From: a virus
Taxonomy: Duplodnaviria > Caudoviricetes
DNA: 64,000 bases
IMG/VR virus record: IMGVR_UViG_3300028048_000059
Coordinates: 32,001-96,000 of that record
Direction: 5' to 3' (one strand)
Shown: positions 1,296-34,057 of the stretch, piece after piece
Position numbering within the stretch: the first letter of the stretch is position 1
Layout: each line of letters starts with the position of its first letter
Notes under the pieces: generated by a model
What the model saw: the letters and a program-made list of their open reading frames with translations, nothing else
Databases searched by the model: none
Told to the model about the DNA's origin: nothing
Made by a program: the position numbers and the translations under genes

Positions 1296-1734
1296 TGTAT
1301 ATTGGTCTAGAATAAACCATTTAGGAGAGACTACTGCTGAACGTATTAAAAATGGTGGTATTCGTTCATTTGAAAAATGGATGGCTGAATCACCACATAC
1401 GGTTCGAGATTTATCTGTGGAAAGAGGTCTTTATTTTGATGGATTAATTCTCACAAATAAAGATAAAGAATATGAAAAAATTATGTTTTTAAATGTTGCA
1501 AATGATATTCCTATTCGCGTTGGGGATATTATGAATTGGGCTATTGAAGATGGCACCATTGAAAAATGGATTTTAATTCAAAAAGAGAAAAAAGTAAATG
1601 GAACATATCAAACTTTTTGGATTGTACGTTGCAATTATTTATTAAAATGGATTGATGAGGTTGGGCATTTGAAACAATCTTGGGCATATGTTGTTAGTTC
1701 TCTTGATTCAAAAATTAAGGGAAATTATCGAACT
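1282..1734 (+). CDS. Neck/head-closure-type protein, exon 1 (spliced product about 461 aa)
   Basis: Ends …GNYRT at the U of a P1 U-G pair and joins in frame to TGG AAT TCA (WNSLITPQPNKYAEILMPR) at 2775. Confidence 0.8.
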
Positions 1735-2774
1735 TGAATTTCAGGTTCCTTAACCAGTAATGGTTATGAAAAATGCTATTGAATTGCTGGGAAATTTTAA
1801 TACTCTTTTTACTACAACACGATCCCTGAGACGGGATGAATGTGATAGTTACGAAAGTAGAAAAAAATAAAAGAGTTGATATAATGCTGTAAAGCTAATA
1901 TATCATACAATAAATAATCAGCAGCTAAGCTTAAATAAAAAAGAAAGTTCAACGACTATCCTTTATGGAGTAGGGCGAGTAAGCTCGAAGCGGTAGCCCC
2001 CTGATTAGGGTGAAGATATAGTCTGAAAGGAGTAACAATGAAAGGTATTATTTATTGTGCATATAATAAAATAAACGGAAAAAGATATATTGGGCAAACA
2101 ATTAAACCTTTGGAGCAACGGATTAAATTACATTATTATAGTTCAAATTGTACTTTATTCCATCGTGCTTTAATGAAGTATGAAGAAAAAGATTGGGAAT
2201 GGACAATCATTGATACTGGTGAAGCTGGTACAGAATTATCACAGAAAGAGCAATATTGGATTAATTATTATGATACTTATAACAATCCTTCTAAGGGATA
2301 CAATCTGACGAAAGGCGGCGAAGGCAGCCTTGGTGTTGTTGTAAGTGTTGAACATAAACAAAGAACACGTAACGCTATGTTAACATTAAAAATGAATCAT
2401 TATAAAGAAAAGGTTGAATCTATCAGCAAACCAATAAAATGTATAGAAACAAATGAAGTGTTTTCTTCTATTTCAGAAGCCGCTCGTGCAAAAAATGTTT
2501 CTAATTCTACAATTGCTAAGGCCGCACATTCTGAAAATGGAATGGCTGTTGGTTGCCATTGGAAATTTTTAACTGGTATTGAAAAATTAAAAGTATTAAA
2601 AAATGCTATTTATTGTGTAGAATTAGATCGATTTTATGAAAGTTTTAAAGAGGCTAGAAAGGTTGACAGATTTCATGAAGGAAATTTACGTCTGGCTATG
2701 ATCCAAGGCGACCCGTATGAAGGGAAAATATATGCTGGGTATACTTTTTATTGGGTTAATCCTGATTTACATAG
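1735..2774 (+). mobile_element. Group I intron 1 (neck gene) with GIY-YIG ORF in L9
   Basis: P1 GAACT|TGA-att-TCA-GGTTC; P element GAATTGCTGGGAAA; Q AATCAGCAGCTAAG; R TTCAACGACTA; S GAAGATATAGTCT; terminal G2774; P10 ATTTCA/TGGAAT. Confidence 0.92.
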
Positions 2775-7746: not shown

Positions 7747-9825
7747 ATGGCAGGTTCTAGTAGTGGAACTACTGTAACAATTGATTTAGGTGTACAACTT
7801 AGATTGATTGAATCATCTTTACGAGATGCACAAAATGCATTGAAGATGTTAAAACCCGATAGTAAGAGTTTTAAAGAGTTACAAAGGATTTTAGCTGTAA
7901 TTACACAGCAAATGAATAAAATTGAAGCGCAATCGAAATCACCGATTAGTTCGACGAAACAGTTAACGCAAATTGATAGGGAGTTTGCGAAAATTAATGA
8001 ATCAATCGCAAGTTTTCAGACTGCATTAAGTCATGTTGATTTTTCTGATTTGGAATTGGATCCGGGGACTGCAAAGCGATTTCAAGAGTTGACTGAACAA
8101 ATTGCGGCTTCACAGAAAAAATATGAAGATTTAAAACAAGCACAAGCAGAAGCATTAGGTAAAAATGCAGATGTACAGGCATTGGTGCCAGACTCAAAAG
8201 TTGTGCAAAAAGGGTATGATGCATTAGCACAAGCAATTGAAGATGGTGCTACCAAAACAGAAGCAGAATTAAGAGCGGCTGAAAAAGCATTAAACACATC
8301 AAAAAAGAAAATAGACATAGGAAAAAGAATTTATTCTATCACCGGCAATGATGGGAAAAATCGGCTACCGCAAGTAGAGAAACAAAAAATAACAGATGCT
8401 ATACCAGAACTTGATCGTTTTATAAGTACAGATAAAAATGGGGCGATGAGGTTTCGGAGTGGTACGCCATACGGTGGTGGAAAGAGCTTTGGCCCTGGTG
8501 AAGCAAAGCAACAGCTTATACAATATTTAAAGGAATTATATTCTTTAAATGACGCGGAAGTTACAAAATTAACAGAAGAAACTGCAAAAAGCACAAGCAC
8601 ACAATTTTTAGCAAAACTGGAAGAAGAAATCGGCAAAGGCGTAAAATCTGAAATTTTTGGGCGTTCTTTACGAGGATTTAAAAAAGCTTCTTCTGATATT
8701 GGGCAGCAAACAACTGATTATGAAGAAGCAAAAAGTAGAAATGAGCAAGCTCAACGTGCAAGAGATGCTTTAAATACTTCTGGTTCAATTATTGATGCTA
8801 GTAGTGAAACAACGCGTGAAGAAATAGAACATCTTAAAATAGAGATAGAGGATTTAAAAGCCAAATTAACACAAGCAGCACAAGCTAATACGCAAATGCA
8901 AAATAGCTTGAATGATATGGGTGACGCCGCGAAAAAAGGGCAACAAGACCTTGAAAAAACTAATAATGAATTAGAGCGTACAAAAACCGTCGCGTCTGCC
9001 TTTGACAGGATTAAACAAGGCATTATCAATTTCACTGGTTTCCACCAAGTAATGCGTATGGTAGGTTCTGCTGTCCGCGAAGCAATGAATCATATAAAGC
9101 AACTTGACTCAACTATGAATGGTATTGCTATTGTTACTAATATGACGACGGCGGACCTGTGGGATCAGGTTGGAGTATATAGCGATATTGCTCGTCAATA
9201 TGGCGTTAGTATTCAAGGTGCTTATGAAGTTTCTAAAATTTACTATCAGGCAGGTTATGAAACTAATGAAGTAATGACCTTGATGAACGAAACATTAAAG
9301 CTATCTAAAATTTCTGGCCTAGATTATGCAACAACAACCGACTACATGATGACCGCAATGCGCGGCTTCAAGTTAGAAATGGAAGATGCGTCACACGTAG
9401 TTGACGTTTATAGCGGTTTGGCCGCCAATACTGCTGTATCACAGAAAGAATTGGCAGAGGCTATGACACGTACTGCATCTTCTATGGAATCTGTTGGTGC
9501 AACATTTGAAGAAACATCCGCTATGATTGCTACCATGGTAGCTGTTACTCGTGAGTCTGCTAGTAACATTGGTAGCGCGATGAAGAGTATAGGTAGTAGG
9601 TTTGGTGAATTAACAAAAGACCCAACCGCATTGTTAGATGCGGAAGGCGAAGCAATGAGCTTCAACAAAGTTGACAAAGCATTACGTTCTGTTGGTATTA
9701 CGTTGCAAACAACAGATCACCAATTCCGTGACTTTACTGATGTAATTTTAGAGTTGGCTGATAAGTGGGATACATTGGATTCTGCTCAACAGCGTTATAT
9801 AGCGACTCAATTCGCAGGAAATCGT
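7747..9825 (+). CDS. Tail tape measure protein, exon 1 (693 aa, TP901-family core)
   Basis: Coiled-coil N-terminus, then LDSTMNGIAIVT, ATMVAVTRESASNIGSAMKSI, LADKWDTL motifs. Ends FAGNR. Confidence 0.92.
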
Positions 9826-10011
9826 TTGGTATTGCTGGCGTTTTCAAGAGCTGCGTAAAAACTCAAAATAAAACAACGTGAATTGCGGGGACATCCTTAG
9901 AGTCTTTTTAACTAAACATTCATAGTAATATAGAATGCGGCTTTCAGTAATGATGAAAGGTATGGTAAAATCAAAAAGAATTGGATAATCCGCAAGCAAG
10001 CATCCCAATAT

Positions 10012-10040
10012 TTGACAAGATAGAATTTTTATGTTATAAT
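10012..10040 (+). promoter_or_regulatory. Intron-internal sigmaA promoter for the HNH gene
   Basis: TTGACA-17 nt-TATAAT, perfect consensus with extended -10 TG. Confidence 0.88.
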
Positions 10041-10061
10041 AAAAGAAAAAGGTTGAATTTT

Positions 10062-10985
10062 ATGTTTAAAAAAATTATTTTAGATGGAGAAACCACACGA
10101 TGGTCAGTTGATGAAAGTGGCCGCGTTAGGAATGATGAAACAGGTCATTTTTTAACTGGTACGATTTTACATAGCTATCGTTATATTAATTTTCGATGGA
10201 ACGGTAAACAGAAGAATAAGTCAGTTCATCGTTTAGTGGCAGAAGCATTTTTGCCCAATCCAGAAAATTTGCCTTATGTTCATCATAAAGATGGAAATAG
10301 GTTAAATAATAATTTGGAAAATTTGGAATGGGTTACGGAGCAAGATAACCGTTTAGAAGCTATAATGCCGCAAGGATATAAAAAATATGATGGTACTAAG
10401 ATCGAAGGCGAGCAATGGCGCTATTTTAGAGATAGCGTTTATCAAGTATCTGATTACGGGCGTGTTAAAAACACAAAAACTGGAAAAATTTTAAAAGGCA
10501 CTGCCAGTGATTGTGGTTATATTCGAGTAGATTTACAATTAGCTGGACAAAAGCGTCGTAAATTTTTAGTTCATCAATTAGTCTATGAGTGTTTTGTTTC
10601 TCCTGAATTTGATGTTATTAATCATATAGATGGTAATAAAAAAAATAATAAAGTAAGTAATTTAGAGAGTGTATCTCATAAAGAAAATTTACAAAAAGCC
10701 GCGAACGAAACTAATGCATGGCATTTTAGGAAAGTTGCACAATATGATTTAGAAGGCAATTATATTCGAACGTTTTTAAATGCCTCTGATGCCGGTAGGG
10801 CCATGGGTATCTTACCTAGTAGCATGAGAAATTGTATTCGTTTGCGTGGTGGAAAACATAAAAATTTTATTTTTAAATATATTGATGAGGATGAAGCTTC
10901 ATCGACCATCTCGGAAGAGAGTAGGGTGAATAGCCCGAAGTGCGTTGCCCACACTAGTGGTGAAGATATGGTCAAAACTGAATGA
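10062..10985 (+). CDS. Intron-encoded homing endonuclease with two tandem HNH modules and a NUMOD1 (probable start ATG 10062)
   Basis: VHRLVA…HHKDGNRLNNNLENLEW and VHQLV…NHIDGNKKNNKVSNLE; AQYDLEG. Confidence 0.9.
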   Translation: MFKKIILDGETTRWSVDESGRVRNDETGHFLTGTILHSYRYINFRWNGKQKNKSVHRLVAEAFLPNPENLPYVHHKDGNRLNNNLENLEWVTEQDNRLEAIMPQGYKKYDGTKIEGEQWRYFRDSVYQVSDYGRVKNTKTGKILKGTASDCGYIRVDLQLAGQKRRKFLVHQLVYECFVSPEFDVINHIDGNKKNNKVSNLESVSHKENLQKAANETNAWHFRKVAQYDLEGNYIRTFLNASDAGRAMGILPSSMRNCIRLRGGKHKNFIFKYIDEDEASSTISEESRVNSPKCVAHTSGEDMVKTE

Positions 10986-11006
10986 GAAATCTTCAGATAC
11001 AAAAAT

Positions 11007-11031
11007 AGCGTGCTATTATAGCACGCTTTTT
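11007..11031 (+). terminator. Terminator-like hairpin within the intron P9 region
   Basis: AGCGTGCTA-tta-TAGCACGCT followed by TTTT. Confidence 0.55.
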
Positions 11032-11058
11032 GTATGCCTTTTTATAAAGGTAGAATTA

Positions 11059-14000
11059 CAGCAATCTCGTTTCTTAGCTCTCGTATCCAATGGAGATCTA
11101 TTGCGTGAAAATCTACGTGTCGCAGAAACTAGCGATGATGTAGGTACAATTCAAGCATTGAAAGCATTGGATTCATTGGAATCGAAGTTAGAGCAAGTTC
11201 GAGTTAGTTATCAACAATTCTATACGTCGATGGGTATTGAGAGCGTATGGAAAGGATTCTTAGATGGCGTTCGACGGGTTATTGATAATTTAAATAAATT
11301 ACCTAAGTTATTTGGTAAATTACCAGTTAATGCAGTCGTTATGATTGCTAATTTGGTTAAAGTTATTAGTCATGGTTTACTAAGTGGGTTAAATAAAATT
11401 GCACAAAATGTTCAAAGTATTATTCAACGTATTAATAAAAACTCCAAGACAGAAGCCGATCAAGGCGGTACGCAGGTTGGAAAAACATGGGTAGATAAAA
11501 TTGTTGATTCAATTACACAGGGGCAAAGTAAGGTTGAACAAGCGGCTCGCGAAACAGTTCAAAAGGCAAATAAAGCGGCGGAAGAAGCTGCGCAAGAAGT
11601 CACGAATGTACAAAAATCAAAGACTAGCAAAGATATTGCGAAGGATGGCCTTAAAGATAACGGCATAGCCGGTATTACTATACCAAAAGGGCAGGCAGCA
11701 GCTGATAAAGCACAATTTAATCGTGATTTATATAATGCATTAGTTGATACATCAAATCCAGAGCAAACTGCGGCTACGTTAGACCCAATTCTTGAAGGCG
11801 TTAATAACGGTACTATAAGTTATAAACAAGCTTTATTAGATGCATCCGCGGCTGTCGCAAAAAATACAAATGAAGCCAAAGGGCTCGGCGACACCATGGA
11901 TTTAGTGGGAAAAAATACTGATAAATTTAAAACAAGCGCAGGCAATTCTGTTGGTGTTGTAGATTCTTTAGTTAAAGAAACCAGTAAAATGGAAACAACA
12001 ACAAAAACTTCTGCTAAGATATGGGAATCTTTTAAATCTGGAGGAGCGTGGAACAAAGCCGCTGTTGGTATTGGAACTGCGATGCAGGCCGCGGCTATGT
12101 TAATTGACACAAGTTCGCGTGCTGGTGAAGTTGCATCTGGGAGCTTTACTACGCTAGGTAGCGCAGTATCAGGTATTGCTGCCGGTGTACGTGTGTTCTC
12201 TGGTGATTTAAGTGCATTACCGCAATTATTATCTAGTGCTGTTTCTCTTTTTAGTGGTATAGGTTTAATAGTTGAAACTGATGCTGAAAAAGTAGAACGT
12301 TTAACAAAAGAAGCTGAAAAATTATCCAATGAAGCGTTGGTTAAGAAAAATGAATATAATACGCTAGATCAGAGTATTAAAAAGTTAGAAGAATTAGAAG
12401 AAAAAAGATATGATAGTGCAGAAGCTGCCGAGGAATATCAAACTGCTGTTGATGAGCTAGCAAAGCAATATCCAGAATTAATTACTGGAATTGATGAGTT
12501 GGGAAATGTTACTATTGAAACTGCGAACATCGAATATGAATTGGAAAAAGCTCGTGCCGCGGCAGCAGAGGCAACATATAATGCGGCCCAAGCTGAACGA
12601 GAAAAAGCTATCGCAGAACGAGATAGTGCTTTAAATGCTTTAACAGGGAAAAAAGAACAAACTTCATATGCGCACAGTATGAATCCAACTGATGGGAGAA
12701 AAGATAATACAAAACGCTTGACGGAGCAAGCATGGAATGAAATTATTGGGGATTATACTGGCAAAACAGATCTTTCTGGATTATACAACACAGATCAGAA
12801 TGGCTTTACAGAATGGATTACTACAGCTGATGGTTTTACCGAGAAGCTATTAAGAGAGATTCTTGAAGGCGCGGCAAACGCCAATTTTGTGGATACGAAT
12901 ACTGGATTTACAATAGTAGCTGGTGAGCCAAACGAAGATAAGAAGGAAATATCTATAAATGAAATTTTGTCTCAATATTTTGATGAATCTGGCGAATTGA
13001 CAGATACAGGTTTAATGTCAAAAATTGATAAAGAAATAGAAGATTTAAATCATGATATTGAAGCAAAAAAGTTTGATGGCGATGAAGGTACTCAAGAATA
13101 TATAAAAAGATCCAAAGCAATTATTGATTTAATTACAGCTAACGGTTTACAGGGATACTATGAGAATTTTTTAGAAAATACGACAGGTGTCACTGAGGCA
13201 GCTAGTGAGTTAGAACGCTCTCGTCGAGTATTGTTATCCACTTCAAAAATAACCATCGATGCTGCGGTTAAAACATATGCTGGCGGTCAAACAGAATTTT
13301 TAGAATCATTAGGTAATTCTAACGCACTTTTAAATCAATATTTATTTGATAAAGCAAATGAACTTGATGCTTATGATTTAGAAAATGATCCAGATGCAAT
13401 TGAAAAGTTTAAGAATTCTGATGATTTTGCAGAAGGTATTGAGGCTTACAAGGCTGAATTTGAAGCATTGTCACCATCCGACACTAAAAAATTCTTAGAC
13501 ATGTGGAAGAATCGCCAAAATTATTCTGAGCAAGATTGGATGGAAGTTTTTGATTTTGACGGCGCATCTGTAATTTGGCAAAGTATTCAAGGATATTATA
13601 GTGATCAAGCTATTGGTTATAGAGATCAATTAGAGCGTTTAAAAAAGCAAATTGATCGTTTGCCAAAAGAAAGCACTTCCGATACATTATTTTCAAATCT
13701 AGAAAATACGTTACGAGAATTTGCTCCATATTTATCTAGTTCTTTAACTAAGTGGATTGGTGGAGTCTTTGATGAATATGAAAAATATGTTTCTCAAGGT
13801 TTTTATAGCAATGCTAATGATTTAATTATGGGTTTAACTGGCGCCTTAACGTCTTTACAAGGTATGTCAGAAGATGACCGTTTAAATGCCGAGAATATTC
13901 TTCAACAAGTTGATTTTTCATCAATTGAAAGCATTGATAAAGCCATAGAAGCCGCTACTGCTGCTGGCTTTGAGGTTGACTCTTTCATTGTAACTAGTTT

Positions 14001-17000
14001 AAATAAAATCAAAGAAGCATATGTATTTAATTTACCATTAGCTATTCAATCATACACAGATCAAATTGTTGCTGGCGCAGATGAATTAGAGCAGTCTTTA
14101 AAAAAGATTAGAAGTGGAGTATCTTTTTCAGAAGCATTAACTGCCATAGAAAAAATAAATACTTATGCAAAGGGCGTACCAGAAGTTTCATTACGAGATT
14201 TTGATCAAAAGAATGGCAAGTTGGTGTTAAATAATCCAGAACTTTTAAAGGCTTACATTGATGCAGAGCGTGCTTCGTTAAAAGAGTCATATGCTCCAAT
14301 TAAAGGAGAACTTGAAAAATATAAAACAGATCAGGAGAAAGGTATTAAAGGAGCATATGTCGATCTTTTAGACACATTAAAGGAAAATGATACTGAGATT
14401 GATGAAAGCATCACTAAACATGCGAATTTAATTAATGCGTTAGAAGCTGCTGGTTTGGCCTATCAAGGCGATGATAAACTTTGGTATACGGTTAAAGATT
14501 TTACTAGCAAAATAGACGGTGGATCTGCTTCGGATTGGATGGTTAATTGGTTACAACAACAACAAGCCAATGCTGACGAAGTAATGAAATACTTCGATAG
14601 CGAGATTATACCATCATTATTCTTAGATGCAGGCTTATATACAGATTATTTAGACGGTATCAAGGCAGCTTTCACTGACGAGCAAGGCAATTTTAATGAC
14701 GTCTTCAATGAACATTTAAATTTTAAAGATATTGCACAAGGTAATTTTTCTGGTATTGAAGATAAGAGAATCGTTAACAATATTCTCCGTCCAGCCCAAG
14801 AAAAAATTAATTCTGAAATGAATACTTTCCTTTCGGATATTATTGAGAAAGGCATTGATAATATTTATTTCCCAGACTATGATTTAGGTTTTGCTGGCGC
14901 TAACGTTCAAAATAACGTTGCAAGCATCTTGGCTGGCCCGAATGGATATACTAATTTAATAAAAGAGTATGGCTCCTGGCTCGGTAATTCCATTGAAGAC
15001 TACAACTCAATGTTCCTCTCTGCCTTAGAAAAAGACACTCAAAAAACACAAGCAATTTCCGACGTTATTAATGACGTCACCTTCATCGGAAAGGATCTCG
15101 CCTATGCATCCGCAGACACAATTAAAGAAATCGCTGATATCTATGGTATGCGCATGGATGAGTTGTTCGATGTTGATAGTTATAATGAAGCATTGGGCGG
15201 CTATCAAGTTAATTTCGCCGCCATTAAAGATTTCTCGCTAGATGAAATTCAAGGCGGCATGGAAGCAGTAGCTGATAGTACCAACTCGTTCTTCCAAGCC
15301 ATGGCAGAAACCATTACCAATGGTATTGAAGGCAAATTAACCTATGGTGAATTAGGTGAATTCCGTCAACGTTTAGATGCATTTGGTATTAATTTGGATT
15401 TGTCATTTAAGCGGACGGCGGATGGATTACAATTAAGCACCAATTCTGCTCGCGATCTCTACTTTGAATTACTGAAAATCGATGCTTTGCAAGCACGTCT
15501 TGTGTTCGATTCTTTGGTTGAATCGTTGGAAGAAACCGATGAGCATTATAAAGACATCAGTTCTATTGCTGCACGTATTGCAGAATTACAAGACTTAATT
15601 GATGATGTTAAAACCAATGATGCGCGTCGCAAGCAATATATGGATGAACTTGAATTAGCAAAAGAAATCTATCAAGTTCGTTCTTCCACAGACAACGATT
15701 CCTTTGATTTCATGAATCGTGACTTGGCACCCGGCATGCAGAACCCAATTGATTATTGGAATGCTGGCGGCGAAGCCTATACCGCGATGAATGAGGCCGC
15801 GAAGAGCGGTTACATGAAAATCGAGGACTTCTACAATATTGTTAATGAAATGAACAACATGGCTGCGACTAGCGGCCAAACGCTTATCTTTATGGGCCAG
15901 ACTCTTAGCGGGAGCGCAGAAGATGCGGCCGCACTTATTGAGGCCGGTTTTGGTGCTTTAAAGAATGTCGATGGTAAGGGTGTGCAAATTTCATTAAAGG
16001 ATATTGGTGCTGGATTTGATGTTGGCGCCGCAGCGATGACCAAAGACTTCGATTCTGGCTTGAAAGCTATGGCGAAGTCGCAGATTGAAATGATTGACTC
16101 TGCCATTAGGATGTTGGAAACGGTTGCTGCATTGGAAGAAATAGACACCGACGAAGACGGCGTGCTTTCAATGGATGAAGTCTTTGATGGGAATGAACTT
16201 AGTGAAAATGTACAACAATGGATTAAAGATACTGATATAGCCGCTGGCGGTATTACTATTGGCGGTAAAACACTATTTGAAGCTATCGACGGTTTAGACC
16301 CCGCGCAAGCTGTTGCCTTATTAAACGAATGGAAAGATATCGATTTCTCCGATCCAATTGCTGCTTGGGATTCAATTAGACAACTTTTGAATATCTATTT
16401 CCCCGGTGCAGAAATCGTAAAAGGCGAATCAATTTTTGATATTTTGAAAGTTCCAAGCGGTGCGAAGGAAGATAGTGAGGCATTTGCAGACTGGGCAGAA
16501 AGTTTAGGGTTAGTTAGTAGCTCAGCAAAAGGAATGATAGATTTCCTTGAAAAAGGGCATGAATTGCAAACTGGTTTACCTTGGTATGAAGCAGTTAAAA
16601 AAGCTTTACTTGGTGATAATACTAGTGAAGATGTTTCTAATTTATTTGATCTTTTTGCCGGGTCTAGTTTATCCGCAGAAGACATGCAATTATGGTCTAA
16701 ATTAAATATAAAAGTAGACGAAAAAGGTAATGTAGATAGTGTTATATATACAGCTTCTGATGGTTCGCAGTTGGAATTACCAGAAGATTCTCCCAGCCAA
16801 TGGTCTGATTTAATCGCTGAATATGAAAATAACGTAGCAATTGTTGCGCATACTGGTGGCTCGGCGAAAAAAGTTAATAAAAACAGTAAACTCATAACTC
16901 TAACATTAGAAGATGGAACTGAGATCAATGGCGTTCTTACCTCAGACGGTGATGGTACATATACTGCATCATATGGAGGAAAAAGTGCTACATTTGATCA

Positions 17001-20000
17001 TCCTGGTGAAGCAGCAGAGTGGATACGTGAACAAGCGCGTGCAGCAATATGGGGCGTTGGTAATCGCGGCGGTAAAAAATTAAACACCGAAACTGGTACT
17101 ATCGAAACATATTATACAATCACTGGAAAAATTGATGAAGATATTGAAGAACAAATTCAGACTGGTGACATTTCAGAAGAATTACAGAAAAAAATTGATG
17201 AAGGAGTTGCTAGCGGCAAAGCTTTCGAAATTGGCGGTATTACTTTTGATGCTGGCACCACACAGCAGGAAGTAATTGATGCTTTTAATGAATCTTTGCC
17301 AGAAGATCCATATGCTACATTAGTGCAACAAATTGCTGACGGTATTACTGCGGCCTTTACTCAACATAGCACAGAAATTGCGAAAGCTTTTTCTGATGGT
17401 ATTTCCCAAGCAGTAAAAGATGCTATGGGCGGAGGTGAAAATCCTACTACTACCGTCCCAGAATCAATTGATTTTATCTCCGTTGCTGGCTTAAGCATCA
17501 TACGCGCTTATGAAGAAGACGGCACGATATCCTATGCTTTTGCTGATGATCCTAACAATACAATGACGCGGGAAGCCATGGTCGCGGCGATAAATGAAAA
17601 AATTACCAATGATGAAGGCGAAGGCGGTATTGATGCTGGCACATTAGATAATGTTTTAGCTACTGGTTCTGGTGGTTTGAATTTTAAAGCTAATTATGAC
17701 CCAGATACTGGCGAAACGACTTGGACTGTTAGCGGCATTGATGGCAAGGGCGCATTTACAGAGGAAAATATCACCGCAGACCAAAAAGCGCAGTTAATTA
17801 AAAGTTTGTCTACTGGCGCGAGCGCAATAGTAAATTTAGGAGATAGTGGTAAAGTAATTGTAGCACAATCTACTAATGGTGTGATTTATACAGCGATTTT
17901 AGAGCCAGATGAAAATGGTATTTACTCTATGACAATGCCTAGCGGTTCTAAATGGACTAGTAAGAATCCGCAAGTTTTATTAACTAGCTATATTAAACTA
18001 AAACGTACAGCAGATAACAAGGCTTTACTCGACTCTTACGCTAATGATGCTGGTGCATCGCCAGATGATGAACCGCTACAACCATTGAAGTTTAGTTATA
18101 CTGTTGGAATGGAAGAACGCACTATAACGGTTCAAGATGAAGGGAACGGTCTTTTCTTGGTACAAGGCTTTGGAGATCCTATACATACTTCTAATCCAAT
18201 AGAATATATTAATAATCAATTAGCAAGCCAAGGTATATCAATTGATCAGTTGCAAACAGTGCCAGATTCACTTGGTTATATTCCATTCGAACAAACTATT
18301 GATGGCATTACTTATAGAATTGTAAATAAAGGTAATAATAATTATGGTTTCTATTCAGATGATAATTTGCTTGGCACGCTTACTAGTACTAATTTAGAAA
18401 TATTTTTAGACTCTATAAAGGCAAGTGCTAAAAGTAGCGCTCTTCAAATAACAGGCTTCTCTGTTAATGAAGAGAATAATTTATTAATTGATTTTAAATA
18501 TCCAGGTTTAAATTATGATATACAATATGATGCTACAAAAAATCAATGGTTAGAGAACGGTACACCACTGACAGGTGTAACAGATTTTGATTCTGTCATT
18601 GAGCATTTTAAAGAGGAAGCCAAAAAAACAGCTGGGTCAACAACTAGTGAATCTCAATCGCAAGATGTCGATTTTGAAGTCAAGGGCGCCATTACTTTTG
18701 ATAATGACACAACACGAGAGCAATTAATTAATTTTCTCGCAGCATTGCAGTCATTATTGACTGGGCAGCCATTACATGTAGGGGTTGTCGCGACACCTGT
18801 GAACCACCTTAATACTGATTTATCAACAGCTGATGATATATCTGATAGTAGTGGTATTTGGAGTGGCGCGGGGTATAAAAATGCAGCAGACTATGCCACC
18901 ACTTTGGCTGATATTGTGCTTCATGGTGGACAATTGGAAAAATTAGATTTTAGTAATTTAAATGTCCTAAATAATTCTGGCTTAGTTACTTCTGTTACCA
19001 TTGGAGAAAATGAATATACAATTGCTGATATTTTAGAAAAAGCTGAAGAGAATGCAGATGGCGTAACTTCCATGCAAGATCTAGCGAACGCTTTTAAGGA
19101 TATCGATGCTGATAATCTCGGAAAAGTTGCAGACGCATTAGCACTTATGGCAACCAACGCGCTAACTTTGAAAGACATTCCTTGGGTCACTATTGCAGAA
19201 GGTATTAATAATTTAGTGCTAAAGAAAAAGCCTAAACCAGAGGGACAATCTAATCCAACTACACCAGAGAAAGTTGGAGACGCCGCAACACAAAAAGTAG
19301 AAGAAATTGTAGAAGAATATGAATTGGATGTCGAAATTCCAAATCTAGCAATTACAGCGACTTCTGCAACTTTAACTGCAACCGACCTTACTGTTACTGG
19401 TGGGCAAACAACACCTACTCCTGGCGGCAATGCAGGTGGTTCAGAAGGAGATAGTAGTGGCGGCCCCACTACTTCAACATCTGTTAGCATAGATACTTCT
19501 GCTGCACAAGCATCTATTGCACAATTGGCTACGTCAATTGGATTTTTAGGATTAACATCCCTTACATCCAGTATTTCCGTAACTGGCTTACAAACTGCGA
19601 TGGGGAAAATTCCTACTGAGGCAGGCTCTCGTGTTGGGTTTTTGGCAGAAAAAATGGGTACTATTCCATCTGGTAAAAGTACCTACGTATCTTCTTTGGC
19701 TACCGCTATGGGTAAAATACCCACTGGCGCGGCCACTGCTGTAAATAATGTTGCGAACGCACTTGATAAGATAAAGAACGCAACCGTTCGTCTAGTGTTA
19801 TCTGTATCAGTACAAACGTCTGGTACAGGTGCGAAAGGCACTGTTACTAGTATTAGCCGCGGAACAAAAACTGGTACTGCATTTGGTACTGCTGGCACAA
19901 TCACATTAACCAATGCAAAAGGCAATGTAGCTCTCGCCGCGGGCCGCCGCACATTGATGGGCGAACTTGGACCAGAGCTAGTCGTTTCCAATGGTCGCTA

Positions 20001-22542
20001 CTTTGTTGCAGGACAAAACGGCGCGGAATTTGTTAATTTGGATGACGATGCTATTGTATTCAACCACATGCAAACTAAGCGTTTGCTTTCACATGGTTCT
20101 TCCGGTCGTGGTAAACCAATAACCAATGAGCGCAACGCAGTCTCATTTGCTACTGGTAATACTAGCGGCCCAGCCATGGCATCTGCAAAGCAAGCCATCG
20201 CGCAGCTACAAAAAATTCGTGCCATGTGGCAATCCATGCTCGATGCATCCGCGAAAGACCTAGGCGCGCAAGCCGGTAAAGGCGGCGGAGGCGGCGGAGG
20301 TGGAGGCGGTGGTGGAGGAAAAGACGATAACAAACTCCCCACCAATGTTGTCCATGATCTTGAACGCTGGTATAACTTAGAGCGGCAGATTGATTTAATT
20401 GAGAAGGATATTACTTATCAAGAAAAATTGCAAGATCGCATGTTAAATGACCGCATTGCTAATGGTAAGGAAATTTATAATTCTTATGTGCAAGAACTTA
20501 ATATGTTGCGTAATCAGATTTCGGCACAAAAAGAATTGGCTGCTCTACAAAAGAACTGGTATGACAGTAAAATGGAAGAACTTAATAATTCTTTCTATGG
20601 ACTTGTTTATACCTATAATGAGAAGGGACTGCAACAGTACGTTTCCGATGCGCCAGGTAGCAATCGTGGCTTAGATATTCTTGCATCGTTGCAGACGCGC
20701 GATACAATGAATAATCCTACTGGACATGCAGTTACTGCACAAGAACAAATTAAGTTCTTGATGGATATCGCGCGGCAAGCTGATATTGATGGACAACAAA
20801 ATGATCAAAATTTTGTTCCACATTTTGTGCAAGATTTACAAAAGCTCCTTGTAAAGGATGATGGCTCACGTATTGGCACTAGCATCGATATGAATGGCAT
20901 CATTAGTGGCCTTGAAGAAGGCACTGAACAAAATGATGCGCAAGTCGAATGGATGGAAAACTTCTATGATATGCTAGATGGCTATCAAGAAGAGTTAGAT
21001 AGTCTGTATGATGCTTATCACGATACTCAATTAGACATTCTTGAAAATCAAGTTAAGCTGGAAGAATACGTACAAAAAATGTACGACAACCAGCTAGAAG
21101 TTGAGCAAGAGGTCCTAAAAGCCATTGAAAATCGTCAACAAAAAATGATTGATACTCTGCAAGATCAACGTGACGCATTAGATGAGGCCGCGAAGAAATT
21201 CACAGACGGCTTGAATGAACAAATGCAACGCGAACAGCAGATGTATCAGAATAGTGAAAATGACCAAGAACTGTTGAAGTTACAACGTCAACTCAACATT
21301 CTACGTCGTTCTGGCGGCTCTGCTTCTCAAATTCGCAATCTAGAAGAGCAGATTGCAAGCAAGCAACGCGATTCCTATTTTGAGGCGCAACAACAACAAA
21401 TTGATGCAATTCAAGAAGCTTCGGATAAGGAATTGGAGAGATTGGATGCTCAACTTGATATTATGAATGAGACATTAGAATATCAGAAAGAGCATGGTCT
21501 ATTCTGGGATGAAGTCCAACAAATTATGCAAGGCACAGAAGAAGAAATTCAACATTTCATTCAAGCCAATGGCGAAGAATGGGAGAGTAAATCTGGCTTG
21601 CAGATTCATGAGGATTTGGTTGAACTTGCCGATAAGATTGGTATTTGGGTTGGTTTTAGAGACGATCCTAATAAAGATCAAAACTTGGATATTAAGGATT
21701 GGACAACCTTCGATACTGCATATAGAAGCTACTATGAGAGATTGGGCATGTCCGACACTGATTGGACAGGCGCGGTCAAAACTGCTCATGAAGAAGCCTT
21801 AAAAGCTGGATACGACCCTTGGCAGGCCAGCGTTATGGCGCGCAATAAAGCTGATAAATTGGTTGGAAAACCACCAGTAAGCGATCAAGGCGCTGACAAA
21901 GATAAGGATGCGGCCGCGAATGCAACCCACTATGAGGACGGTCAGCATGCATATCCTGTTATTTTAGCTGGCGGTTCAGGTTTGTTTGCTCATAGGTTCG
22001 ATGATAAATCCCGCATTCGTAATTATGACGCAGGTTCTGAACTTATTGCTTATCCGAATACAGCATATGGCCCTGGCAATCATTTTGTTTGGGTACATGA
22101 CCCATCAACTGGATTGTCTGGTTGGATGTGGTTCAATGGCGGCAACATTAAATATAAGGATAGCGGCAAACCACTATACAGTTATCGCACAGGTGGCCTA
22201 ATCGACTATACTGGCCCCGCATGGGTGGATGGTACAAAGTCACAACCAGAAGCCATATTAAATGCAGAACAAACTGCAATCCTACGTTCTACCCTATTAA
22301 GCGGCAAGAGTTCATTACCTTATGTGCTATCTGAATTAACTAGCATAATAGATGAAACAAGTCACAATAATCTATCAGGATTGAGTGGCGGCGGCACTAT
22401 TATGATAGAACACGCAGAAGTGAACATGAACGTTGGTTCAATTGCAAACGATTATGACGCACGTCGTGCTGGTGAGGCCGCACTTGATGAAATGGTGCGA
22501 ATTGCGAGAAAATCTGGCAGTCGTAGCGTAACAAGGAGGTAA
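11059..22542 (+). CDS. Tail tape measure protein, exon 2 (3827 aa; spliced about 4520 aa)
   Basis: Begins QQSRFLAL; hydrophobic segments, long coiled coils, GELGPE and WVDGT..QPEAIL motifs, poly-Gly, SH3b-like region near the C-terminus. Confidence 0.92.
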   Translation, partial: QQSRFLALVSNGDLLRENLRVAETSDDVGTIQALKALDSLESKLEQVRVSYQQFYTSMGIESVWKGFLDGVRRVIDNLNKLPKLFGKLPVNAVVMIANLVKVISHGLLSGLNKIAQNVQSIIQRINKNSKTEADQGGTQVGKTWVDKIVDSITQGQSKVEQAARETVQKANKAAEEAAQEVTNVQKSKTSKDIAKDGLKDNGIAGITIPKGQAAADKAQFNRDLYNALVDTSNPEQTAATLDPILEGVNNGTISYKQALLDASAAVAKNTNEAKGLGDTMDLVGKNTDKFKTSAGNSVGVVDSLVKETSKMETTTKTSAKIWESFKSGGAWNKAAVGIGTAMQAAAMLIDTSSRAGEVASGSFTTLGSAVSGIAAGVRVFSGDLSALPQLLSSAVSLFSGIGLIVETDAEKVERLTKEAEKLSNEALVKKNEYNTLDQSIKKLEELEEKRYDSAEAAEEYQTAVDELAKQYPELITGIDELGNVTIETANIEYELEKARAAAAEATYNAAQAEREKAIAERDSALNALTGKKEQTSYAHSMNPTDGRKDNTKRLTEQAWNEIIGDYTGKTDLSGLYNTDQNGFTEWITTADGFTEKLLREILEGAANANFVDTNTGFTIVAGEPNEDKKEISINEILSQYFDESGELTDTGLMSKIDKEIEDLNHDIEAKKFDGDEGTQEYIKRSKAIIDLITANGLQGYYENFLENTTGVTEAASELERSRRVLLSTSKITIDAAVKTYAGGQTEFLESLGNSNALLNQYLFDKANELDAYDLENDPDAIEKFKNSDDFAEGIEAYKAEFEALSPSDTKKFLDMWKNRQNYSEQDWMEVFDFDGASVIWQSIQGYYSDQAIGYRDQLERLKKQIDRLPKESTSDTLFSNLENTLREFAPYLSSSLTKWIGGVFDEYEKYVSQGFYSNANDLIMGLTGALTSLQGMSEDDRLNAENILQQVDFSSIESIDKAIEAATAAGFEVDSFIVTSLNKIKEAYVFNLPLAIQSYTDQIVAGADELEQSLKKIRSGVSFSEALTAIEKINTYAKGVPEVSLRDFDQKNGKLVLNNPELLKAYIDAERASLKESYAPIKGELEKYKTDQEKGIKGAYVDLLDTLKENDTEIDESITKHANLINALEAAGLAYQGDDKLWYTVKDFTSKIDGGSASDWMVNWLQQQQANADEVMKYFDSEIIPSLFLDAGLYTDYLDGIKAAFTDEQGNFNDVFNEHLNFKDIAQGNFSGIEDKRIVNNILRPAQEKINSEMNTFLSDIIEKGIDNIYFPDYDLGFAGANVQNNVASILAGPNGYTNLIKEYGSWLGNSIEDYNSMFLSALEKDTQKTQAISDVINDVTFIGKDLAYASADTIKEIADIYGMRMDELFDVDSYNEALGGYQVNFAAIKDFSLDEIQGGMEAVADSTNSFFQAMAETITNGIEGKLTYGELGEFRQRLDAFGINLDLSFKRTADGLQLSTNSARDLYFELLKIDALQARLVFDSLVESLEETDEHYKDISSIAARIAELQDLIDDVKTNDARRKQYMDELELAKEIYQVRSSTDNDSFDFMNRDLAPGMQNPIDYWNAGGEAYTAMNEAAKSGYMKIEDFYNIVNEMNNMAATSGQTLIFMGQTLSGSAEDAAALIEAGFGALKNVDGKGVQISLKDIGAGFDVGAAAMTKDFDSGLKAMAKSQIEMIDSAIRMLETVAALEEIDTDEDGVLSMDEVFDGNELSENVQQWIKDTDIAAGGITIGGKTLFEAIDGLDPAQAVALLNEWKDIDFSDPIAAWDSIRQLLNIYFPGAEIVKGESIFDILKVPSGAKEDSEAFADWAESLGLVSSSAKGMIDFLEKGHELQTGLPWYEAVKKALLGDNTSEDVSNLFDLFAGSSLSAEDMQLWSKLNIKVDEKGNVDSVIYTASDGSQLELPEDSPSQWSDLIAEYENNVAIVAHTGGSAKKVNKNSKLITLTLEDGTEINGVLTSDGDGTYTASYGGKSATFDHPGEAAEWIREQARAAIWGVGNRGGKKLNTETGTIETYYTITGKIDEDIEEQIQTGDISEELQKKIDEGVASGKAFEIGGITFDAGTTQQEVIDAFNESLPEDPYATLVQQIADGITAAFTQHSTEIAKAFSDGISQAVKDAMGGGENPTTTVPESIDFISVAGLSIIRAYEEDGTISYAFADDPNNTMTREAMVAAINEKITNDEGEGGIDAGTLDNVLATGSGGLNFKANYDPDTGETTWTVSGIDGKGAFTEENITADQKAQLIKSLSTGASAIVNLGDSGKVIVAQSTNGVIYTAILEPDENGIYSMTMPSGSKWTSKNPQVLLTSYIKLKRTADNKALLDSYANDAGASPDDEPLQPLKFSYTVGMEERTITVQDEGNGLFLVQGFGDPIHTSNPIEYINNQLASQGISIDQLQTVPDSLGYIPFEQTIDGITYRIVNKGNNNYGFYSDDNLLGTLTSTNLEIFLDSIKASAKSSALQITGFSVNEENNLLIDFKYPGLNYDIQYDATKNQWLENGTPLTGVTDFDSVIEHFKEEAKKTAGSTTSESQSQDVDFEVKGAITFDNDTTREQLINFLAALQSLLTGQPLHVGVVATPVNHLNTDLSTADDISDSSGIWSGAGYKNAADYATTLADIVLHGGQLEKLDFSNLNVLNNSGLVTSVTIGENEYTIADILEKAEENADGVTSMQDLANAFKDIDADNLGKVADALALMATNALTLKDIPWVTIAEGINNLVLKKKPKPEGQSNPTTPEKVGDAATQKVEEIVEEYELDVEIPNLAITATSATLTATDLTVTGGQTTPTPGGNAGGSEGDSSGGPTTSTSVSIDTSAAQASIAQLATSIGFLGLTSLTSSISVTGLQTAMGKIPTEAGSRVGFLAEKMGTIPSGKSTYVSSLATAMGKIPTGAATAVNNVANALDKIKNATVRLVLSVSVQTSGTGAKGTVTSISRGTKTGTAFGTAGTITLTNAKGNVALAAGRRTLMGELGPELVVSNGRYFVAGQNGAEFVNLDDDAIVFNHMQTKRLLSHGSSGRGKPITNERNAVSFATGNTSGPAMASAKQAIAQLQKIRAMWQSMLDASAKDLGAQAGKGGGGGGGGGGGGGKDDNKLPTNVVHDLERWYNLERQIDLIEKDITYQEKLQDRMLNDRIANGKEIYNSYVQELNMLRNQISAQKELAALQKNWYDSKMEELNNSFYGLVYTYNEKGLQQYVSDAPGSNRGLDILASLQTRDTMNNPTGHAVTAQEQIKFLMDIARQADIDGQQNDQNFVPHFVQDLQKLLVKDDGSRIGTSIDMNGIISGLEEGTEQNDAQVEWMENFYDMLDGYQEELDSLYDAYHDTQLDILENQVKLEEYVQKMYDNQLEVEQEVLKAIENRQQKMIDTLQDQRDALDEAAKKFTDGLNEQMQREQQMYQNSENDQELLKLQRQLNILRRSGGSASQIRNLEEQIASKQRDSYFEAQQQQIDAIQEASDKELERLDAQLDIMNETLEYQKEHGLFWDEVQQIMQGTEEEIQHFIQANGEEWESKSGLQIHEDLVELADKIGIWVGFRDDPNKDQNLDIKDWTTFDTAYRSYYERLGMSDTDWTGAVKTAHEEALKAGYDPWQASVMARNKADKLVGKPPVSDQGADKDKDAAANATHYEDGQHAYPVILAGGSGLFAHRFDDKSRIRNYDAGSELIAYPNTAYGPGNHFVWVHDPSTGLSGWMWFNGGNIKYKDSGKPLYSYRTGGLIDYTGPAWVDGTKSQPEAILNAEQTAILRSTLLSGKSSLPYVLSELTSIIDETSHNNLSGLSGGGTIMIEHAEVNMNVGSIANDYDARRAGEAALDEMVRIARKSGSRSVTRR
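19597..19770 (+). repeat. About three 18-aa (54-nt) degenerate repeats MG(K/T)IP(T/S) in the tape measure
   Basis: ATGGGGAAAATTCCTACT / ATGGGTACTATTCCATCT / ATGGGTAAAATACCCACT at 54-nt spacing. Confidence 0.7.
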
Positions 22543-24281: not shown

Positions 24282-27200
24282 ATGATACGTAATTATGAAG
24301 TCTCTGTTTGGACGCTTCAAGACAGTTTTATAACTGTCTTGAAGCCTGACAAATTAGAGAGTAAAGGACAAATCGAAAATGCAAAAATGCATTTAGTGAA
24401 TGATGGAACCGCTGAACTATCATTCACAATTCCTATGTATTTAGGGCATACGGAAAATACTTATTGGTATGATGAAACCAATGAGGCCGCGCCAACAAGA
24501 GAAAATCCATTATGGCAAAATACAGTGAATGGCGTAATTCTTGCTGGTATGCGGAAAATTAAAGTTATTTTTAATAAACAAACAGAAGATGAAGCTGTTT
24601 TTGAATTTGTTATAACAAAAGTAACTGAGCGCCACGAGAAAGACGAAAAGTGGTGCGATGTTGAATGTGAAGGGCTAGCGTTCCACGAATTGGGAAAAAA
24701 TGGGTATAAAATTTCTTTAACAGAAGAAACCTACTATAATGATTATGAGGACTGGGCTAAGACTGAATATACCGAAAGCGAAGAGGCGGCCCACATGGCG
24801 GCCGAGCCACGTAACAATATTGAGTATTGGCTACATAAAATATTTGATGGCACTGATTGGAATTGGTCAGTACAAATGGATTATGCTAACCACGATGGTA
24901 TTGTCTATCGTCTTGATTTGACCAATTCTGCAATAGATCATGCTTGGGTTGATTTAAGTAATATTGCTGATGAAGAATATCATGACACCAAATTATTGAC
25001 TTATTTTGACCTAACAAAAGAGCAACAGGCTGTTGTTAATCAGCGCAGAGAGAACATGGGACTATGGCGCTGCGATAAAATTTATGAAGAAGAATATGTG
25101 ACGGAATGGGATGATGATAGTCAAACAAACTCTGTTCCGTTTGGTAGTTCTAATTATATTACTAATGCTAGCATTGGGCCGCTAACAGATGTTAAAATTA
25201 ATATAAAGCAGGTACAAGAAGCCGAAGAGTCATCTTCGACTAATAATAGACCAATTAGTGGCTGGACGAAGGCTAATATTTATATTGATTCTACACATAC
25301 GACTACTGCACCTGCAAAGACAATAGAATTTCCTGAGACTGTATATGGAGGCACTCTCGATGTTACTAGTGGCACGTTAACTGTTACACAGTGCGTGGAT
25401 GTGTTTGATGGCAGTGAAAAATGGACGTATGCAGGTATGGCTGGATCACGACCTTATTATTCCACGGCCACTACGAATTATTATCTAAATGTAAAAAAGG
25501 GCACTGGCGGGGTTAGCGCGAATTGGTTACCTGTTATTGATGATGAGCAAGATCAAACTTATACTCTTAGTTCGGTACGATTGCGTTCTTCCTCCGCGGC
25601 ACAAAATATAGTTTTTTTCATAGTTGGTAGCGATTTGCCGAATATTACTGATGCAAGTACATTGCAAGCGTATTTAAAAGAACACCCATTGCAAGTAAGT
25701 TATCCTATAATGACGCCAAAAGTACAAACTATCAATCCTACTTCTATCACTACGCCAACTAGTAATTCATATATTTGGTCAGACGCGGGTGATATATCAG
25801 TAATATATCAGACGCAACCAACAGCCATCTTCCCCGGAGCAGTCGAAAAAGCGAAAGAAAAAGAGCGCCTTATTAACTGCGAAGAAAGCAATATTTATAA
25901 TATAACACAAGACCTTGCAGAAGCATTTGGAGTTTTTTGTAAATATAAATATTACTATAACGATAATTATCACATAACTGGCCGCGAGGTAATTTTTTAT
26001 AACACATTTATCCAAGATTCAACAGGTGTTATTGATATAACCTATCCATATGATACAGGGAAAATTACTAGGGAAATGGATAGCGCGGATGTAGCTACGA
26101 AGCTGTATGTAAAAAAATTAGAAAATAGTAATACGGCATCAGGATGGGCTACAATAACTGATACCGCGATAAATAAAACGCTCGAAGACTATATTTTAAA
26201 TTTTGACTATCTCTATACAATTGGCACAATCACAGAAGAGCAATATGCTGAGATACCAAAATTTGAAACAGACGTACGTAAGCTTAATTTGGAAATGCTA
26301 CCAAAAGAGCAAGAGTTAGATTTACTACAATTGAAGTTGCCAGAAGCTGAGGCCGCAGTAACAGTATTAAACAATGCAGTAGCATTAGATCAAGAGCGCA
26401 TTTCTGCGAATGACGACCTTTTAAATAATTTAACGAATGGCACACAAATATTACATGTAACCGCAAATAGACCAAATCTTTCTTATTTGGTTCCAGATAA
26501 GGATGCAAAAGAAGACGAAAAGCCATATAAAATTATTTTGCGAGAGAAAGGCATTATTAAAGACACAGTGCATGTATATAAAAAATGGGAACTTTCTAGC
26601 GCTCAAACAACAGAGAATACAGAAGGAACTGAAAATACTGAATCAACAGAAGATACCGCTACTGAAACAGAAACTACTACTGAAACGGAAACCACTGGCA
26701 ATGAGTCTACGCCAGCCAATACGGAAGAAGAAATCGGTCGATACACCTTAACGGAAGAAGTAACCTATTCTCCCAGATTCGATGCCGATGGCAACTTAAT
26801 TGCTCTGGCTAATTTAGCAAAGAGTGATGACGAAAGCTCTCTACGTTATATTACTTATGATTATAGGCCAGCATTGTACTATGATAATATAAAAGAGTCT
26901 TGGGTGCGTAGGCTTAACGATGATGAAGCAAATCGTGTTAAGGCGCAAGCAGAATTAGAAACTATACAAAACCGCATTGAAGTTTTAAAAGCAGAATTGG
27001 AAGCTTTGATGATTCAAAAAGACAACCTCTTAAAATATTTCAATCGCTTAATGGGGCCGGCTCTTAGAGAAGCTAATTGGCAGCCCGAAGACGAATATGG
27101 TAAGTTTGGCGCTAAATATAATACAAAATTATCTTTTAGCGATTTTAATAAAGATACACTAATTCAACTCTATTGGGACGACGTTGGTTTTGAGGACGAA

Positions 27201-32968: not shown

Positions 32969-33996
32969 TAACCTTCACCGCCTCCGGTTTTATTAAAACC
33001 GAAAGTATTTGATTTAAAGAAATCAATATAGTATTTTTCTAAATCACTTAGTTGCTCTTTTTCACAATAAATAATTGGTTCAATTGCCCAGTTCCAAAAA
33101 CCAGTTTGCCAAATGGCGTGATGAACGGCTTGGTCAGAAATTGTTTTAATTCCGATAGAACTTTTAAAGTGATCGATAATACGTTTTTTAATATTGGTAC
33201 TTTTACCAATATAGCATTTCCCGCTATCAATGTTGGTTATTTTATAAATGCCAGGTTTTTCTTCTATACCGACTCGTTTAAAAGTTTCATCAATATAAGG
33301 TTTTACATATTCTGCCCAGACCAATTTATTAATAATGTCAGGATGTTGTACTTTTTGTGAGACAGTCGTTACTAGAAAATTAATGTCTTCCTTGTACTCA
33401 TCTGGCACTTGAATTGTATAGAACAAACGTTCTTGCTGTTCTTTTTCATATTGTTGCAACGGGAGCAAAAGTCCTTCAAAACGTTTTTGTTGTTCCTGCG
33501 TTTCTGCAATTATTGCTGTTTGGCTCGCCGTCGCGGCCGCAATTGTTTGTTCCATTTCTTCTTGTGCATGATCTTTTTTATCTTGATATTCTTGTAACAA
33601 TTGCTTATATTTGAATTCAAGATTTTGTTGTTTTTCACGCCACAATTGATCAAAGGTTGTATCTAATTCTGACTGTCGTAATTGTTTTTGATTAATAAAA
33701 TAAGTGTCTAAATCACTAGTTTTACGATTTAATTCTTCTCGATACTTTTTTTGTACTTCAAGAATTTTATTATTATATTGCTCTATTTGCTCAGTTAAAG
33801 CAGTTTTTTCTTTGACTAATTGATTTGTTTCATAACAAATTGATTGCAGACGATCTTCATTGGTTTTTATTTCGGCTTGCAATTTACGCAATCCATCTCT
33901 ATTAATGGATTGCTTTTTATTTAATTTATAAATTAGGCAAATAATAATAATGGCGAGTATTAATATGGCCGCCATCCATAGCATCTGTACTTGCAT
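32968..33996 (-). CDS. Membrane-anchored coiled-coil protein with C-terminal GIY-YIG nuclease domain
   Basis: N-terminal TM helix; Q/E/K-rich coiled coil; PGIYKITN…YIGKS.NIKKR..H, E.YYI, GFN. Confidence 0.82.
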   Translation of the reverse strand: MQVQMLWMAAILILAIIIICLIYKLNKKQSINRDGLRKLQAEIKTNEDRLQSICYETNQLVKEKTALTEQIEQYNNKILEVQKKYREELNRKTSDLDTYFINQKQLRQSELDTTFDQLWREKQQNLEFKYKQLLQEYQDKKDHAQEEMEQTIAAATASQTAIIAETQEQQKRFEGLLLPLQQYEKEQQERLFYTIQVPDEYKEDINFLVTTVSQKVQHPDIINKLVWAEYVKPYIDETFKRVGIEEKPGIYKITNIDSGKCYIGKSTNIKKRIIDHFKSSIGIKTISDQAVHHAIWQTGFWNWAIEPIIYCEKEQLSDLEKYYIDFFKSNTFGFNKTGGGEG

Positions 33997-34028
33997 TTAC
34001 ATCACAACCACTCCTTTATTTATAATTT

Positions 34029-34057
34029 ATTATATCATGATTTTTAAAAAAAGTCAA
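34029..34057 (-). promoter_or_regulatory. sigmaA promoter
   Basis: TTGACT-17-TATAAT with TG extension. Confidence 0.85.

Follow-up and report, generated by a model that had tools for sequence, protein, structure and literature searches.

A group I intron in a phage tape-measure gene that probably splices although it ends in adenosine

The guanosine at the end of a group I intron is treated as universal and as mechanistically essential for the second splicing step. We analyzed a 64,000-nucleotide stretch of viral DNA (hereafter the window; bases 32001-96000 of the 157,489-base IMG/VR virus record IMGVR_UViG_3300028048_000059, Duplodnaviria; Caudoviricetes) in which the gene for the tape-measure protein (TMP) is interrupted by a group I intron whose last base, the omega G of other group I introns, is instead A11058. 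We conclude that this is probably a live, mobile phage IA group I intron that splices the TMP mRNA at exactly U9825|C11059 despite the terminal A. At the level of sequence comparison the analysis demonstrates the positions of both splice sites, the retention of a 3' terminal AUUA, and purifying selection that acts on the ribozyme fold as well as on the codons that open exon 2. The parts of the gene on which this conclusion turns are as follows.

7747..9825, plus strand: TMP exon 1, 693 codons ending ...QFAGNR, last codon CGT (open reading frame list and translation)
9826..11058, plus strand: group I intron, IA-type with P7.1/P7.2, 1233 nt, last base A (borders from intron-less homologs and from P1/P10; fold from compensatory changes)
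11055..11058, plus strand: invariant 3' end AUUA, with A11058 the terminal (omega) nucleotide; the same in the window and in the related introns L014, L017, L020, L021, L022, L078 and L080
11059..22542, plus strand: TMP exon 2, 3827 codons plus stop, starting CAG CAA TCT CGT (QQSR); 11059-11065 is the P10 partner

The exon borders were read from homologs that lack an intron. Specifically, 1.84 billion cluster representatives were searched with the last 264 residues of exon 1, and the residues following the motif ...QRYIAT..AG[NS]R were read off in the best 150 matches. About 125 uninterrupted TMP homologs among these matches (45-87% identical, 2000-5700 amino acids) continue as AG[NS]R|QQSRF[LI]A. 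Two Gln residues are present in about 125 of 126 intron-less representatives, with one reading MQSRF and none having a single Q. The spacing is also kept in more distant TMPs of cultured phages, which read AGTYQQSRF in Perkons, AGKYQAETF in Enterococcus H1 and GGTRQYGQF in Phass-1. The last codons of exon 1 (...GGA AAT CGT, ending at 9825) are in frame with the open reading frame 7747-9858, which past TMP residue 693 runs through ten more codons of non-coding sequence, and the Pfam domain PhageMin_Tail covers residues 483-691 of exon 1. Since the intron-less homologs read AG[NS]R|QQSRF, exon 1 ends at T9825 and exon 2 starts at C11059, and the last base of the intron is therefore A11058. At the predicted TMP junction ...GGAAATCGT would be joined to CAGCAATCTCG. 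A sequence-only reading of the window had already placed the 3' splice site after A11058 and had matched the joined AGNR-QQSRFLAL to the RQQSRF motif of related tape measures; the homologs bear out both statements. Other borders were tried and rejected: moving the 5' site to follow T9826 or T9827, or the 3' site to follow G11049, G11050 or G11053, gives stops, frameshifts, or insertions that are foreign to the homologs.

The same junction is specified by the internal guide of the intron, which lies in these elements.

9817..9845, plus strand: P1 hairpin, exon strand 9817-9825 and guide strand 9838-9845, with a T9825-G9838 wobble at the 5' splice site
9831-9837, plus strand: P10 strand ATTGCTG, followed by G9838 and then CG
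10975..10976, plus strand: J7/9 AA, the P9.0 partner of T11056-T11057; AA/UU in 8/8 terminal-A introns

P1 is formed by GGAAAUCGU/GCGUUUUC with a single U-U mismatch; seven of its eight positions are paired in the window copy, and the relatives have at least 8 pairs. CAGCAAT at the start of exon 2 (11059-11065) is the perfect complement of ATTGCTG (9831-9837) and makes a P10 of 7 bp; seven Watson-Crick pairs in a row at a single given register would arise by chance with a probability of about 6e-5. This P10 register is common to all 8 related full-length introns. The guide as first described, ATTGCTG-G-CG with its T9825-G9838 pair and its complement at 11059-11065, holds in every part, and the AA that follows P7 can indeed pair, as P9.0, with the TT (11056-11057) just before A11058.

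Related introns came to light among the representatives themselves: in a dozen of the best 150 the protein breaks off directly behind AG[NS]R, a sign that the TMP site is occupied by an intron, and DNA was fetched for most of them. One further relative, L078, came from a pattern scan of JGI metagenomes and has only the 3' end of its HNH open reading frame covered. Eight HNH-bearing introns at the TMP site (window, L014, L017, L020, L021, L022, L078 and L080), which derive from independent assemblies in IMG/VR, ENA, Logan and JGI, all end in AUUA|CA. Their 3' ends read GAATTA (window and L014), GAGAATTA (L017), TATAATTA (L020), GATATTA (L021, L078 and L080) and TATATTA (L022), and the 24-93 nt upstream of the AUUA vary freely in length and sequence across the eight introns. 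A promoter-like reading of these TAGAAT/TATAAT-like ends was dropped as unsupported. The copies have diverged to 58-95% identity in the HNH protein (amino acids), 64-98% in the ribozyme halves (nucleotides) and 43-98% in the flanking TMP (amino acids). L014 represents an almost identical phage from a second sample; it differs by about 4% over the intron, mostly in the HNH open reading frame, and has kept the A. The HNH gene is intact in 7/7 full-length terminal-A introns (the window and six relatives). Pattern scans of IMG/VR for the intron core gave 0 matches, 51 matches that were mostly chance (2 were real, unrelated introns) and 0 matches, and blastn against cultured phages found no carrier, only generic core similarity to introns of Staphylococcus, crAss-like and Vibrio phages.

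Starting at the A| junction, every one of these introns forms a P10 of at least five uninterrupted pairs, and the guide covaries with exon 2, being UGCUG/CAGCA in some copies vs UGUUG/CAACA in others. A sister intron without an open reading frame, L016, shares the guide ATATTGCTGGCG as well as exon 2 and ends in GAGATG|, with a terminal G. L016 is the only intron with a terminal G at the TMP site, as opposed to A in the window and seven relatives; it is 72-73% identical to the window copy in both ribozyme halves, and trees of either half place it together with the terminal-A intron L017 (support 0.996 and 0.907). This distribution needs one G/A change on the tree, and we therefore do not claim repeated origins.

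The exon sequence upstream of the site also differs between alleles. The Arg codon before the site is AGA in all three intron-less alleles examined (L012 4882, L013 4849 and L089 3325) and CGT (window 9823-9825) in all intron-bearing alleles, where it supplies the wobble U and two pairs of P1. This pattern fits an exon that was either co-converted with the intron or adapted to it. A different family of HNH-bearing introns, with P7 GACTA/TAGTC, occurs in more distant TMP genes of the AGSR|QQSRF type (L082 2194-3860 and L083 2616-3790). These introns lie at or within one base of the TMP site and follow an exon 1 that ends in CGG; their junction would have either a C-A wobble with a terminal G or two extra residues.

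We also asked how well the ribozyme itself is preserved, its principal helices being the following.

9874..9879, plus strand: P3 5' strand CAACGT, partner GCGTTG at 10942-10947; 6/6 pairs in all 8 introns through changes on both sides
9883..10005, plus strand: P4-P5 (extended P5 arms)-P6/P6a, 5' half; 43 RNAalifold pairs, 14 with compensatory changes
10904..10908, plus strand: P7 5' strand GACCA, with G10904-C10973 the guanosine-binding G-C pair
10969..10973, plus strand: P7 3' strand TGGTC, so that P7 is GACCA/UGGUC
10979..10995, plus strand: P9 hairpin, with compensatory changes in L022 and L016

RNAalifold applied to 8-9 homologs returned 22 compensated pairs, 14 among the 43 pairs of the 5' halves and 8 among the 27 pairs of the 3' halves, in P4, P5 and its arms, P6a, P7, P7.1, P7.2, P8 and P9. 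P3, which links the two halves, is fully paired in all eight introns by way of four different compensated variants; L020 has the P7 closing pair in the reverse orientation; and P9.0 is AA/UU in the terminal-A introns vs GU/AU in L016. The guanosine pocket consists of a bulged C10903 (A in L020), the G-C pair and then an A-U pair, and is the same in all terminal-A relatives. The G10904-C10973 pair, reported as intact in the sequence-only reading, is indeed so, and its G-C counterpart is present in all terminal-A introns with A-U at the binding pair in none. A cmscan search with the group I model RF00028 did not report the window copy in either gathering or E-value mode, the likely cause being the insertion of the approximately 0.9-kb open reading frame in P6a, and gave L016 53.5 bits vs the 50-bit threshold.

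The A could in principle be only apparent, with the ribozyme using G11061 as its terminal nucleotide, in which case the product would read NR|QSRF with one Gln less and with P10 out of register. G11061 is in frame and lies just 3 nt downstream, and group I introns as a rule end in G (PMC8146996). However, QQSRF is kept in essentially all intron-less homologs, and the homologs had been set in advance as the test between a functional omega-A and G11061; that they carry two Gln, and none a single Q, favors omega-A. Nor can such a site be the general one in the related introns. Exon 2 of L020 is CAACAATCTCG (CAACAA), which has no G in its first 10 nt and hence no equivalent of G11061, and the only in-frame G upstream would yield GTA TAA, a stop; in L022, where exon 2 starts CAACAG, use of the G would delete both Gln. 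Moreover, all 8 introns have P10 and P9.0 in the A| register, the very one employed by the terminal-G sister L016. We regard splicing at G11061 as very unlikely. A shift of both sites by one base (after G9824 and after U11057) would leave CG+A = CGA, an Arg codon, and an intron with a terminal U. Protein comparison cannot discriminate against this shift since it encodes an identical protein, but under it P10 would no longer stack on P1, the U-G wobble would be lost and a terminal G would still be lacking, and the canonical register of a U-G pair plus a terminal G is unambiguous in the homologous intron L016. It thus strikes us as highly improbable. The idea that assembly or sequencing turned a true G into A11058 is effectively refuted by an A at the homologous position in seven other assemblies from different samples and pipelines.

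A different kind of account holds that splicing is no longer completed, such that TMP is made as two polypeptides or exon 2 is translated alone, and that the terminal A is a tolerated lesion in a decaying intron. This would suit the terminator-like hairpin that precedes the 3' splice site and the starts that gene callers place inside exon 2. Against it, the break would fall inside the most conserved motif of TMP; P1, P10, P9.0 and the whole core keep their pairing by compensatory changes over deep divergence; and the HNH genes are all intact in the seven full-length terminal-A introns. The first exon-2 codons are likewise conserved as protein, with Ser-Arg encoded by AGT AGG in L022 vs TCT CGT in the window, and synonymous codons directly after the junction indicate that the region is translated in intron-bearing genomes. 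There is no conserved start codon and no in-frame read-through; L020 carries a stop just upstream. We therefore consider loss of splicing unlikely, although somewhat less so than the two displaced junctions.

A second intron of the same genome also appears to end in A. The large terminase gene (terL) is split by an HNH-bearing group I intron that lies outside the window (record 26117-26926; L011 1531-2340), that ends in AATTA|CA, and that follows a C, with a C-G pair in P1, rather than a U. The 94 uninterrupted TerL homologs read IDGNG|[PA]GIGLLDA, with Pro in 87 and Ala in 7, and the TerL of Bacillus phages reads DGNGLGRGLLD. Only the join GGG C|...AATTA|CA GGA yields Pro, with other joins of equal length giving Thr or Arg, and both P1 (UGGGC/GCCCA) and P10 (UCUG/CAGG) agree with the A-terminal join. 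Taken with the Pro of the homologs, this fit of P1 and P10 indicates that the terL intron ends in A and follows C. A diverged relative, L087, has a terL intron that ends ...CATTTA|CA with P1 UGGGC/GCUCA. With the borders given in the sequence-only reading, the tail-tube intron of the window would end in ...ATATTG| and the neck intron in ...CATAG|, so that the ordinary 'AUU-G' context would be present in this phage too. A specificity switch in the guanosine pocket was ruled out as the explanation, as the pair is G-C; a link between the terminal A and a C-G fourth pair in P7 was rejected as well, since L016 shares the C-G and the terminal-A terL intron of L087 has U-A.

As for how the TMP intron would splice, the first step would be ordinary, with exogenous guanosine bound at the G-C pair of P7 attacking after the U-G wobble of P1. 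In the second step the 3' splice site would be placed mainly by the 5-7 bp P10 stacked on P1 together with the 2-bp P9.0 (AA/UU). The terminal A would sit in or beside the guanosine pocket and bind it more poorly, so that exon ligation is probably slower and yet sufficient. The sequence-only reading had proposed that splicing may be protein-assisted or deliberately slow. We speculate that a slow second step may be tolerable because both genes with a terminal-A intron, those for the tape measure and the large terminase, are needed in few copies. Several points weigh against functional splicing from a terminal A. The pocket is unchanged (G-C, then A-U) and nothing in the core explains how an A would be accepted; in the Tetrahymena intron, a change of the terminal G to A strongly impairs exon ligation; the terminator-like hairpin stands between the ribozyme core and the 3' splice site; and the eight terminal-A introns may share one G-to-A change, in which case they speak of tolerance and retention and not of eight origins. 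A more far-reaching possibility, which we find doubtful though worth stating, is that the terminal A is selected and not just tolerated. The second step would then be set wholly by P9.0 and P10 without recognition in the guanosine pocket, and a slow or conditional ligation would serve as a built-in throttle for low-copy proteins; the terL intron, which also lacks the U-G wobble, would go a step beyond this. If this were true, group I introns could do without either of their 'universal' splice-site nucleotides in vivo.

Group I introns are known in the TMP and terminase genes of Bacillus cereus-group prophages (TMP-IVS1/2/3 and term-IVS1/2), which belong to the phage IA introns with HNH or GIY-YIG endonuclease genes (PMC2504315). 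The intron described here resembles the B. cereus-group introns in its P1-P10 core with P7.1/P7.2, in an endonuclease gene that is looped out of a peripheral helix, in its insertion in a conserved motif of a late structural gene, and in the coexistence of intron-plus and intron-minus alleles with co-adapted exon flanks (CGT vs AGA, both Arg). It differs from them in ending with A and not G. Furthermore, virtually all group I introns follow a U (PMC2504315), a rule from which the terL intron departs by following a C.

Exceptions to the terminal G have been described in other settings. In the hexacoral mitochondrial intron ND5-717 an A replaces the universally conserved terminal G, with perfectly ligated exons in vivo (PMC6545197, PMC8146996). 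The TMP intron is like ND5-717 in having a terminal A, in residing in an essential protein-coding gene, and in being kept across a lineage. However, ND5-717 is obligatory, vertically inherited and organellar, with host genes inside its P8 and without a homing endonuclease, whereas the phage intron is compact and mobile, with an intact HNH gene and with intron-less alleles in close relatives. The coral ND5 intron had been the one natural exception known to the sequence-only reading, a view that must be widened, as the report on a Coxiella burnetii 23S rRNA intron states in its title that the canonical terminal G is missing (Raghavan et al. 2007, J Bacteriol 189:6572; listed as ref 20 in PMC3428280). 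The TMP intron is likewise a group I intron of the bacterial world without a terminal G. The Coxiella intron is reportedly self-splicing and confined to a single known lineage; it is said to reside in an rRNA gene of a bacterial chromosome, unlike the intron here, which is in a phage TMP gene. A non-G last nucleotide that is kept in a lineage together with an intact ribozyme is a property that the TMP intron shares with ND5-717 and the Coxiella 23S intron. The Tetrahymena ribozyme has also been engineered to have an A-U pocket and an A in place of its terminal G (Been and Perrotta 1991, Science 252:434; as cited in PMC2588497, ref 8). The second step would use a terminal adenosine in both cases, but the pocket pair here is a normal G-C, so that no change in cofactor specificity is indicated. 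Full-text literature searches returned no terminal-A group I intron in phages. What is new is thus the phage lineage, a statement that is well supported; the terminal-A exception itself has already been published and this is not a new kind of element.

The terminal-A intron and its close terminal-G relative form a natural pair with which to study ligation without recognition in the guanosine pocket, and a compact phage intron with a deletable open reading frame lends itself to such work far better than the giant mitochondrial intron of corals. The finding matters in practice as well: annotation pipelines and intron finders requiring a terminal G or a 5'-site U will mis-call such genes; TMP and TerL of these phages are fragmented in public gene calls.

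The remaining features of the intron concern its endonuclease gene and the region between the core and the 3' splice site.

10012..10040, plus strand: predicted sigma-70-type promoter match in the P6a loop, 5' of the HNH gene; TTGACA-17-TATAAT with a TG before, 12/12 to consensus
10062..10985, plus strand: HNH homing endonuclease open reading frame, 307 amino acids (translation; Pfam HNH_3, NUMOD4 and NUMOD1)
11007..11035, plus strand: P9.1 hairpin followed by a T-run, terminator-like, 31 nt 5' of the 3' splice site

The Pfam E-values of the HNH protein are 9e-21 for HNH_3, 1e-11 for NUMOD4 and 4e-5 for NUMOD1, and its last approximately 30 codons overlap P6', P7, P7.1, P7.2, P3', P8 and P7'. 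The P9.1 hairpin is absent from the relative L017 and is therefore not needed to define the splice site. Given its location 31 nt before that site, late TMP transcripts must read through this terminator-like structure.

Several observations on the gene and genome accompany these results. Spliced TMP (window 7747-22542) would reach about 4520 amino acids, with relatives of up to 5700, a size that implies an extremely long tail or large non-ruler domains; public gene calls break this gene at the intron. The closest TMP in the species-genome collection, L089 (JAZQTG010000088.1), is 79% identical and intron-less, and its contig is binned with an Acutalibacteraceae metagenome-assembled genome, which points only weakly to the host group. 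The whole 157,489-base record contains at least seven group I introns that Rfam can detect. An RF00028 match of 58.9 bits at window 1725-2030 (record 33725-34030) is missing from the gathering-threshold cmscan of the whole window, presumably by a filter effect. Finally, reading TAG as Gln is required for the TMP, TerL and HNH genes of several relatives (L017, L080, L081 and L088), whereas those of the window phage use the standard code; the same intron family is found in phages of both code types.

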